Positions 45,361-45,946 of a stretch of 64,000 nucleotides of DNA are shown here, in pieces. The notes beneath the pieces are model-generated. The model was not told where the DNA came from, did not search any database, and saw nothing but the letters and a program-made list of their open reading frames with translations. How positions within the stretch are numbered: position 1 is the first letter of the stretch; every line of letters starts with the position of its first letter. Origin of the DNA: Escherichia coli (lineage in GTDB: Bacteria; Pseudomonadota; Gammaproteobacteria; Enterobacterales; Enterobacteriaceae); the NCBI RefSeq assembly GCF_045037415.1, contig NZ_CP173438.1. The stretch is one strand, 5' to 3'. The translations under genes and the position numbers were made by a program.

Positions 45361-45946
45361 TTGTGACCATTAAACATTTATCAAAAATCTACTACTAACA
45401 TAGCAAAACTACAATTAACATAACCTCAATAGCCCCAACATGAAGAATAATATGAATAGCTGCTCTATTTATTTCCGCTAGTTCAAGATAAATATTTCCG
45501 CGCATCGATTAAAGACGATGCATCGTTTTCTGCGATGGGAATAGTCATAAAAGAAAAACCAAGTCGTTTCTGATAACAAAATACAACCGATAAAAATTAC
45601 CTTATTTTTTAATAAGATATAAAAAATATCTTAACGAAAAATATATTATGTATCGTCAACCCATGCTCATGGAAGATTATTTTTTGAGCACACAACCGCA
45701 GCTAACACCTTACAATTAACAAATTTGCATCAATCCGCCATCAATTTACACACATTATTATGTGATATTTGCCAACCGCTAAATATGCGTTTTGTTATCT
45801 ACGTATAAAAACAGCAACTTCAATGTCTTAATGGCAGTTTTTCTTGATTTTAATCAGCATTCACCGCCAATTTATTGGGCATATTTTTTCCTTAACTTTT
45901 AGGAATTTTTTATTATTTACTTTGGGGCCTGGAGACAGGAAAAATT

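Follow-up and report, generated by a model that had tools for sequence, protein, structure and literature searches.

The AT-rich spacer between the divergent pagP and dcuC genes of Escherichia coli: probable activator-dependent promoters at either end of probably H-NS-silenced DNA

The window, a continuous stretch of 64,000 nt of Escherichia coli DNA, contains the divergently transcribed genes pagP and dcuC, which are separated by a non-coding spacer of 586 bp (45361–45946). The 186-aa reading frame of pagP (crcA), encoding the lipid A palmitoyltransferase, occupies 44800–45360 on the minus strand, and dcuC, encoding an anaerobic C4-dicarboxylate transporter, extends from 45947 to 47332 on the plus strand. 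Beyond pagP lie cspE and crcB, and beyond dcuC lie dpiA and dpiB. Gene identities were taken from the listing of open reading frames together with the RefSeq annotation that E. coli genomes matching the window carry; gene coordinates in the window correspond to NZ_CP147065.1 from position 568389 for all of the genes that were checked. Through pagP the cell governs lipid A palmitoylation, which has an effect on antimicrobial peptide resistance, inflammatory signalling and biofilm survival, whilst dcuC exports succinate during fermentation.

The original prediction had described the spacer as long, markedly AT-rich and furnished with several A/T tracts, all of which is borne out by its composition. 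Its GC content of 0.312 compares with 0.503 for the whole window, and it is the longest of the 36 intergenic regions of at least 30 bp in the first 50 kb, for which the median length is 113 bp. No other 586-bp stretch within the 64 kb reaches a GC content of ≤ 0.33, and sliding windows that are equally AT-rich amount to only 0.17 %. A/T tracts of at least 5 nt occur 12 times, compared to 3.7 ± 1.8 in composition-matched shuffles, representing an approximately threefold enrichment. The tracts display no helical phasing, as the power of the AA/TT periodogram at 10–11.25 bp is not above that of shuffled sequences (the fraction reaching the observed value being 0.80), and intrinsic curvature is therefore not supported.

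A search for coding potential returned 13 open reading frames of 12–36 aa within the spacer, none of which is preceded by a Shine–Dalgarno match of at least 4 nt, or is intact in all nine of the Escherichia comparison sequences. There is thus no credible small protein gene in the spacer, in agreement with the earlier view that it holds no convincing reading frame. Similarly, an Rfam scan of positions 44300–47500 at E ≤ 10 places no family inside the spacer. The sole real match in that interval is to the cspA-thermoregulator model, and lies over cspE.

At the dcuC end, the spacer harbours an FNR box, TTGATTTTAATCAG, at 45844–45857 on the plus strand, which agrees with 9 of the 10 specified positions of TTGAT-N4-ATCAA. 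Matches of this quality number 7 in the window, with 2.7 expected, meaning that the match alone is unremarkable; what renders the box convincing is instead its conservation across orthologues. From 80 pagP loci that were fetched, 49 sequences (the present window counted in) possess a dcuC–pagP spacer, and an FNR-type box with no more than two mismatches is found in 48 of these, its centre lying 92–106 nt from the dcuC ATG in 46. Furthermore, across 46 unique orthologues, which represent more than 10 genera, the box, the 22 nt that follow it and the sequence GGCAyATT keep a single register without gaps. This places the promoter amongst the most tightly preserved elements of the locus, an observation that is mildly new, if descriptive. 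In vivo occupancy is provided by the literature, as the ChIP-seq data of Myers et al. (PMC3688515) give an FNR peak for dcuC at 655,298, and the authors count dcuC amongst the operons under direct activation by FNR. The spacer of K-12-type genomes corresponds to 655,193–655,780 and the predicted centre of the FNR box to ~655,288, i.e. 10 bp from the published peak.

Within the conserved block TTATTnGGCAyATT, the hexamer CATATT at 45880–45885 (CACATT in other genera) is the likely −10 element of dcuC, given its fixed ungapped register in the 46 unique sequences. With CAyATT taken as the −10, transcription would begin at ~45892, giving a leader of ~55 nt, and the centre of the FNR box would be at −41.5, which is class II geometry; bound at TTGATTTTAATCAG, FNR would then recruit RNA polymerase to the weak CATATT hexamer under anaerobiosis. 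A Shine–Dalgarno sequence, AGGA, is present at 45937–45940, with 6 nt separating it from the ATG at 45947. Like class II FNR-activated promoters in general, that of dcuC combines a TTGAT-N4-ATCAx box, at what would be a proper spacing from the weak putative −10, with in vivo FNR occupancy and FNR-dependent anaerobic induction, the latter two known from the literature. It differs in that G is the last base of one half-site (ATCAG) in almost every genus, and in that the start site is a predicted one. For dcuC, Myers et al. give the remark ‘TSS not in peak region’ (PMC3688515), so a database start site may be elsewhere, and a class I layout is conceivable for E. coli, in which TATTAT at 45911–45916 (9.8 bits) would serve as the −10 and FNR would be at approximately −72. 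This hexamer is not conserved across genera. The anaerobically induced dcuC promoter that had been presumed to reside in the spacer finds support in an FNR-type promoter of conserved register with a published FNR peak ~10 bp away.

The pagP end appears to be organized in a comparable manner, with a weak PhoP-type box close to a −10. The best-placed match to the PhoP consensus, (T/G)GTTTA-N5-(T/G)GTTTA, is TATTGAGGTTATGTTAA on the minus strand at 45415–45431 (TATTGA-GGTTA-TGTTAA), which agrees at 9 of 12 positions, a quality that is common in AT-rich DNA. Its distal half-site is homologous to a genus-wide conserved xGTTAAG and, reading in the pagP direction across genera, this element, a second half-site 11 bp later and then the block TTTGCTAT are all conserved. 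The probable −10, TATGTT at 45397–45402 on the minus strand (TATGCT in K-12), lies inside TTTGCTAT and aligns to the mapped Salmonella −10, TATTAT. Transcription would accordingly start at ~45389–45391, 6–8 nt downstream of the −10, leaving a leader of ~30 nt. Between the end of the PhoP box (45415) and the −10 (45402) there are 12 nt, and the centre of the box lies ~32 bp from the predicted start. We infer that this weak box (45431→45415) takes the place of a −35 element for a transcript beginning at ~45390. In this geometry, the PhoP-dependent pagP promoter that was anticipated for the spacer does appear to be present.

Support for such an arrangement comes from a comparison with Salmonella enterica, whose pagP promoter is assigned to PhoP architecture IV (Zwir et al. 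2012, PMC3335776). There, the mapped promoter possesses a box, CTGTTTATAGTTTGTTAAG, located 23 nt upstream of the −10 TATTAT, and a leader of 16 nt (PMC3335776); the Salmonella arizonae sequence in our set yields the same numbers. The two species share an xGTTAAG element 23 nt before a homologous −10, a short leader and a divergent dcuC neighbour, the homologous half-site being TATTAA in K-12 and TATTGA in the present allele, at 23 nt from the −10 in E. coli as in Salmonella. In Salmonella, however, it is the promoter-proximal part of the footprint that is formed by the conserved half-site, the centre of the box being 43–44 bp from the start, whilst in E. coli this half-site constitutes the distal half of a usable box that is one helical turn closer (32 bp). 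The predicted E. coli geometry thereby reproduces the published difference in the distance from PhoP site to transcription start, namely 32 bp for E. coli crcA and 44 bp for Salmonella pagP (PMC2908699; PMC3335776). The Salmonella spacer is also shorter, at 391 bp, and does not contain the centre found in Escherichia. Counting against a PhoP-driven promoter, E. coli pagP is induced in biofilm independently of PhoP (PMC4147861).

A PhoP half-match near 45370 had previously been singled out, and a sequence of this kind, TTTTTGATAAATGTTTA, does exist on the pagP strand at 45371–45387, 11–27 nt from the pagP ATG, with 10 of 12 positions in agreement (two mismatches to KGTTTA-N5-KGTTTA). It is not, however, the activating site. 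Matches to the PhoP pattern are found 187 times in the window at no more than three mismatches, compared to 139 expected, with ~30 at no more than two, and six of those at no more than three falling in the spacer; the half-match is consequently no better than chance. It would lie downstream of the predicted start, at about +5 to +21 of the ~30-nt pagP leader and hence inside the 5′ UTR. PagP would lose its signal peptide without the annotated ATG at 45360, since residue 31 is the next methionine, and with the start codon so fixed no promoter can sit downstream of 45371–45387. In addition, the sequence is not kept in Escherichia whittamii or in Escherichia sp. E1V33. Position, chance-level frequency and loss in these two genomes together rule it out as an activating PhoP box, and it is probably a chance match. 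The same few nucleotides are the target of an IS1 insertion in strain E41-1, which occurred at 45371–45379, 11–19 bp upstream of pagP, and generated the duplication TAAACATTT.

Both predicted leaders are short, leaving ~500 bp between the two start sites and no support for the suggestion that the size of the spacer reflects a long leader. The companion suggestion, that of nucleoid-protein binding, fares better, with H-NS being the protein indicated by published work. The spacer has the AT-richness (at 0.31, the lowest GC content of the window) and the A/T tracts of H-NS-bound silencing DNA. Matches at 8 of 10 positions to TCGATAAATT, the consensus of the high-affinity H-NS motif, occur twice in the spacer, a weak excess of 3.4 per kb over the 1.4 per kb of the window. 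In published genetic work, deletion of hns derepresses a pagP–lacZ fusion 18-fold, and SlyA, for which there are three putative sites, activates pagP in biofilm (PMC4147861). RcsB and GadE also act in pagP control (PMC6106083), and the spacer is flagged ‘HNS’ in a sigma-70 genomic SELEX table (PMC3946193). That H-NS acts across the whole spacer in the present allele is something we infer from these sources. Seen in this light, pagP resembles the H-NS-silenced promoters that are counter-silenced by SlyA or PhoP, such as those of Salmonella pagC and ugtL and the E. coli K5 capsule promoter, in possessing long AT-rich upstream DNA, enriched A/T tracts, weak core promoters in the spacer, and published hns and slyA phenotypes. 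It departs from them in being an ancestral core gene rather than part of a horizontally acquired island, and in the lack of phased curvature; its H-NS and SlyA sites are putative.

The intervening DNA includes a hypervariable centre at 45541–45720, with a GC content of 0.28, which alignments across genera and alleles reveal to be mostly missing in Citrobacter, Salmonella and Klebsiella. Spacer length varies accordingly, from 558–588 bp in Escherichia to ~460 bp in Citrobacter, 391 bp in S. arizonae and ~290 bp in Klebsiella and Raoultella, with AT-richness common to all, and the additional Escherichia sequence is this same centre. It is single-copy in E. coli genomes (median of 1 place per genome), which speaks against a repetitive or mobile origin. 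Divergence from K-12 is 17.4 % in the centre compared to 2.6–6.2 % in the rest of the spacer, and amongst eight E. coli alleles the mean pairwise difference in the centre is 14.1 %. As dS for the flanking genes is 0.078 (dcuC, dpiA and crcB) to 0.174 (pagP), a divergence of 14–17 % indicates that the rate of change in the centre equals or exceeds the local neutral rate. By comparison, the dcuC-proximal ~230 bp are strongly constrained, with ~2.6–3.6 % of positions differing from K-12.

This variation is unevenly distributed amongst E. coli genomes, in which spacer alleles are bimodal. Around 1,040 of 5,408 genomes carry a spacer at least 95 % identical to the present allele, and ~4,350, including K-12, lie at 90–95 %, with none of the sampled matches falling between 98.3 % and 93.2 % identity. 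The K-12 spacer (588 bp) shares with that of the window its genes, their order and orientation, an identical FNR box and the same arrangement of PhoP box and −10, and can be aligned from end to end. The two are nevertheless only 91.5–92 % identical, and differ in the distal PhoP half-site (TATTAA in K-12, TATTGA here) and in the −10 (TATGCT and TATGTT, respectively).

The centre also contains the counterparts of two promoters predicted in K-12 beneath in vitro sigma-70 binding (PMC3946193). That in the dcuC direction, a ‘constitutive’ promoter of the form ATGACA-17-AATTAT, is degraded in the present allele, where 45573–45600 on the plus strand reads ATAACA-16-AATTAC and scores 1.6 bits in a position weight matrix (PWM) scan. 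That in the pagP direction, TTAAGA-17-TAAAAA, is retained at 45606–45634 on the minus strand (7.2 bits) and, if used, would give a leader of ~240 nt. Strong sigma-70 promoters are otherwise lacking from the spacer, with a consensus scan returning 0 compared to 4.6 ± 2.0 expected and no PWM match reaching 10 bits, which fits with activator dependence.

Collectively, these observations favour, with a probability of about 0.82, the reading that the spacer is a divergent regulatory region of pagP and dcuC, in which a short activator-dependent promoter at each end is separated by H-NS-silenced, AT-rich DNA. Each gene would have its promoter within ~100 bp of its own start codon, and the remaining ~500 bp, probably untranscribed, would be coated by H-NS, as judged from published genetics and in vitro binding. 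H-NS would thereby silence pagP until counteracted by SlyA, RcsB/GadE or PhoP. Of the intervening DNA only the composition seems to be constrained, with weak, allele-specific promoter-like sequences in the centre, and it is seemingly this constraint, and not some concealed element, that the manner in which the spacer has evolved reflects. This reading draws on anatomy, conservation and composition as determined in the present analysis, and the occupancy by FNR and the dependence of pagP on H-NS, SlyA, RcsB and GadE come from the literature. The spacer is, in this respect, an already-studied control region with no convincing hidden gene or RNA, and hence an ordinary one. The new points, namely the misplaced PhoP half-site, the rigid dcuC FNR promoter and a centre that is hypervariable within E. 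coli, are descriptive and leave current understanding unchanged. A map of promoters and silencing aids the interpretation of natural or selected changes in the spacer, such as the IS1 insertion of E41-1 and the insertions of IS5 that were reported with kanamycin selection (PMC6307192).

Other accounts of the centre can be envisaged, although each is considerably less probable. In the first, which we regard as rather unlikely, 45541–45720 would be a fast-evolving regulatory module in which cryptic sigma-70 promoters, arranged back to back, together with DNA for H-NS nucleation allow the allele to set lineage-specific basal expression of pagP (lipid A palmitoylation) and/or dcuC, or else specify an allele-specific non-coding transcript equivalent to Ssr31 (see below). 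If this were true, the two deep allele classes of E. coli would be functionally different. Alternatively, the additional ~120–300 bp of Escherichia might be what is left, after decay, of an element that was inserted or gained by horizontal transfer, and not regulatory DNA. The gradation in spacer length between genera would accord with such an origin, as would the fact that the additional sequence is the most AT-rich part, and the spacer is a known target of insertion sequences, with IS1 found in natural strains and IS5 under kanamycin selection (PMC6307192). The centre is, however, single-copy, is flanked by no terminal inverted repeats or target duplications, and displays no reading frame remnant, whilst gradual small indels in low-complexity DNA account for the pattern equally well. 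We consequently give little credence to this possibility, which in any case could hold true alongside H-NS silencing.

Adjacent to the centre, at 45502–45537, a consensus scan identified tandem hairpins of the form CATCG-N8-CGATG and CATCG-N7-CGATG, which are terminator-like on both strands. The stems are 5–6 bp in length and the T tracts poor, and folding is no better than that of shuffled sequences, with z values of −1.6 and −1.4 for the present allele and −0.9 and −1.2 for K-12. The arms change without compensation amongst eight E. coli alleles, and the structures are unrecognizable in E. whittamii and E1V33. A terminator or attenuator at this location as a conserved structure is ruled out by the weak z values (−0.9 to −1.6) and the uncompensated changes.

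These hairpins would acquire a role if additional promoters in the centre, with starts at ~45599 (minus strand) and ~45607 (plus strand), gave rise to leaders of 240–340 nt that are controlled by hairpin attenuation or at the level of translation. Sigma-70 holoenzyme does bind the spacer in genomic SELEX, where the promoters ATGACA-17-AATTAT (dcuC) and TTAAGA-17-TAAAAA (pagP) were predicted (PMC3946193), and the pagP-direction site is kept here at 7.2 bits. Were the transcript longer, a 14-nt inverted repeat, 45879–45892 with 45937–45950 (13 of 14 positions), could mask the ribosome-binding site of dcuC, and the ‘TSS not in peak region’ label (PMC3688515) might likewise point to a start further afield. 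The K-12 promoters are, however, sequence guesses beneath low-resolution in vitro peaks; the dcuC-direction site is degraded in the window (AATTAC has lost its final T, leaving 1.6 bits) and resides in a hypervariable region; the hairpins are not significant; and for the leader sequences there is neither conservation between genera nor an Rfam match. H-NS would, moreover, be expected to silence such promoters in vivo. An arrangement of this kind is therefore improbable, and with predicted leaders of ~30 and ~55 nt, no Rfam match and no conserved structure, the spacer does not have the appearance of a cis-regulatory leader or riboswitch.

The sole published hint of an additional RNA in the spacer is Ssr31, predicted in Shigella flexneri 2a 301 on the pagP strand of the pagP/dcuC spacer (694,274→693,980; 295 nt) and positive by RT-PCR (Wang et al. 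2016, PMC4782007). That the centre encodes an independent sRNA of this type on the pagP strand, starting near 45800 and ending at the hairpin at ~45521–45537, is very unlikely: although Ssr31 shares the spacer and the strand and is RT-PCR positive (PMC4782007), and although weak promoter-like matches (45782–45809, 8.1 bits) and a terminator-like hairpin (45537–45521) are available on the minus strand, Ssr31 rests on promoter and terminator prediction plus RT-PCR, without Northern blot or RACE, the hairpin does not surpass shuffled sequences in stability (z = −1.4) and has only the poor T tract CATCGTCTTT behind it, its arms vary uncompensated amongst E. coli alleles and cannot be recognized in E. 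whittamii and E1V33, nowhere is the spacer more variable than in the putative RNA body, there is no Rfam match, and no 3′ end for pagP or dcuC appears in the Term-seq tables examined. The last of these counts for little as negative evidence, given the poor expression of both genes under the conditions used; the supplementary tables of published SMRT-Cappable-seq likewise contain neither pagP nor dcuC. Thus, whilst Ssr31 and the present sequence have spacer and strand in common, the features that define an sRNA gene (a promoter of its own, for which no match reaches 10 bits, a stable terminator, conservation and an Rfam match) are absent from the window at this position.

Sigma-54 holoenzyme binds the spacer in vitro, with an RpoN genomic SELEX peak at 655,760 (PMC8743547). 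A GG-N10-GC core (of the TGGCAC-N5-TTGCW type) is absent from both strands of the spacer, which rules out a sigma-54 promoter behind this peak, and a looser search at three mismatches is uninformative, returning 300 matches with 334 expected. A repeated sequence, TGTTAATTGTA, is present twice on the minus strand. The first copy, at 45410–45420, overlaps the proximal PhoP half-site and agrees at 9 of 10 positions with the ArcA 10-mer consensus, WGTTAATTAW. The second, at 45711–45721, was identified by a repeat scan and cross-genus comparison, and is a candidate ArcA-like site for an upstream regulator. A published survey predicts an ArcA site of at least 15 bits in the dcuC/crcA spacer, without ChIP binding (PMC3798270). 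Escherichia, most Citrobacter and Enterobacter share an ATTAACA core located 120–138 nt upstream of the FNR box.

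Within the spacer between pagP and dcuC, TGTTAATTGTA occurs twice on the minus strand, at positions 45711–45721 and 45410–45420, with the two copies spaced 301 bp apart. In Escherichia, most Citrobacter and Enterobacter, the ATTAACA core of the copy at 45711–45721 is found again at a distance of 120–138 nt upstream of the FNR box, with the sequence around it being otherwise unconserved. The motif harbouring this core resembles an ArcA half-site, and may represent an unrecognised upstream regulator site of dcuC.

Closer to the dcuC start lies a 14-nt inverted repeat (45879–45892 and 45937–45950), with 13 of its 14 positions being complementary. 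The arms correspond to the dcuC −10 region on one side, and to the Shine–Dalgarno sequence plus ATG on the other, such that their pairing could be relevant only to a transcript begun upstream of the FNR promoter. This repeat is not conserved outside of Escherichia, and the complementarity may simply result from the runs of A and T here.

At the pagP end of the spacer, an IS1 element is present in E. coli strain E41-1, comprising 777 bp of extra sequence and a 9-bp duplication, TAAACATTT (window positions 45371–45379; 1600–2963 in L003, the handle of the compared locus). This places the insertion 11–19 bp upstream of the pagP ATG, and in this strain the native promoter and silencing DNA are separated from the gene by the element. 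The exact junction has no match in any genome other than that of E41-1; three further genomes (LAU-OXA, CH459 and MINF_8D) appear to possess IS1 at a different position just upstream of pagP. During experimental evolution under kanamycin selection, IS5 insertions have been found within the same spacer (PMC6307192).

With regard to pagP itself (44800–45360), synonymous divergence from K-12 is 0.174, roughly double the 0.078 measured for dcuC, dpiA and crcB, with a dN/dS of approximately 0.04; cspE, which is located among these genes, displays zero differences. PagP likewise diverges far more than DcuC between genera, with 89 % identity versus 98 % for DcuC in E. whittamii. In E. coli strain GN25 (locus L085, 1–150), the annotation gives the gene as a pseudogene, truncated so that the C-terminus is lacking, and thus pagP is not universally intact in this species.

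Beyond pagP, the cspE mRNA region (44368–44816, minus strand) is hit by the cspA thermoregulator model of Rfam (RF01766) at 136 bits, exceeding the gathering score of 78, with the match running across the 174-bp AT-rich cspE–pagP spacer (GC 0.31). Elsewhere in the window, ybeM (deaminated glutathione amidase; 43098–43886, minus strand) is intact here and annotated as frameshifted in K-12 MG1655, whilst ybeQ and ybeF are pseudogenes according to the annotation of the matching strain. A second sharply AT-rich patch (49700–49900; GC 0.25 in 200-bp windows) lies just past the dpiB start, and is presumably the dpiB–citC divergent control region.
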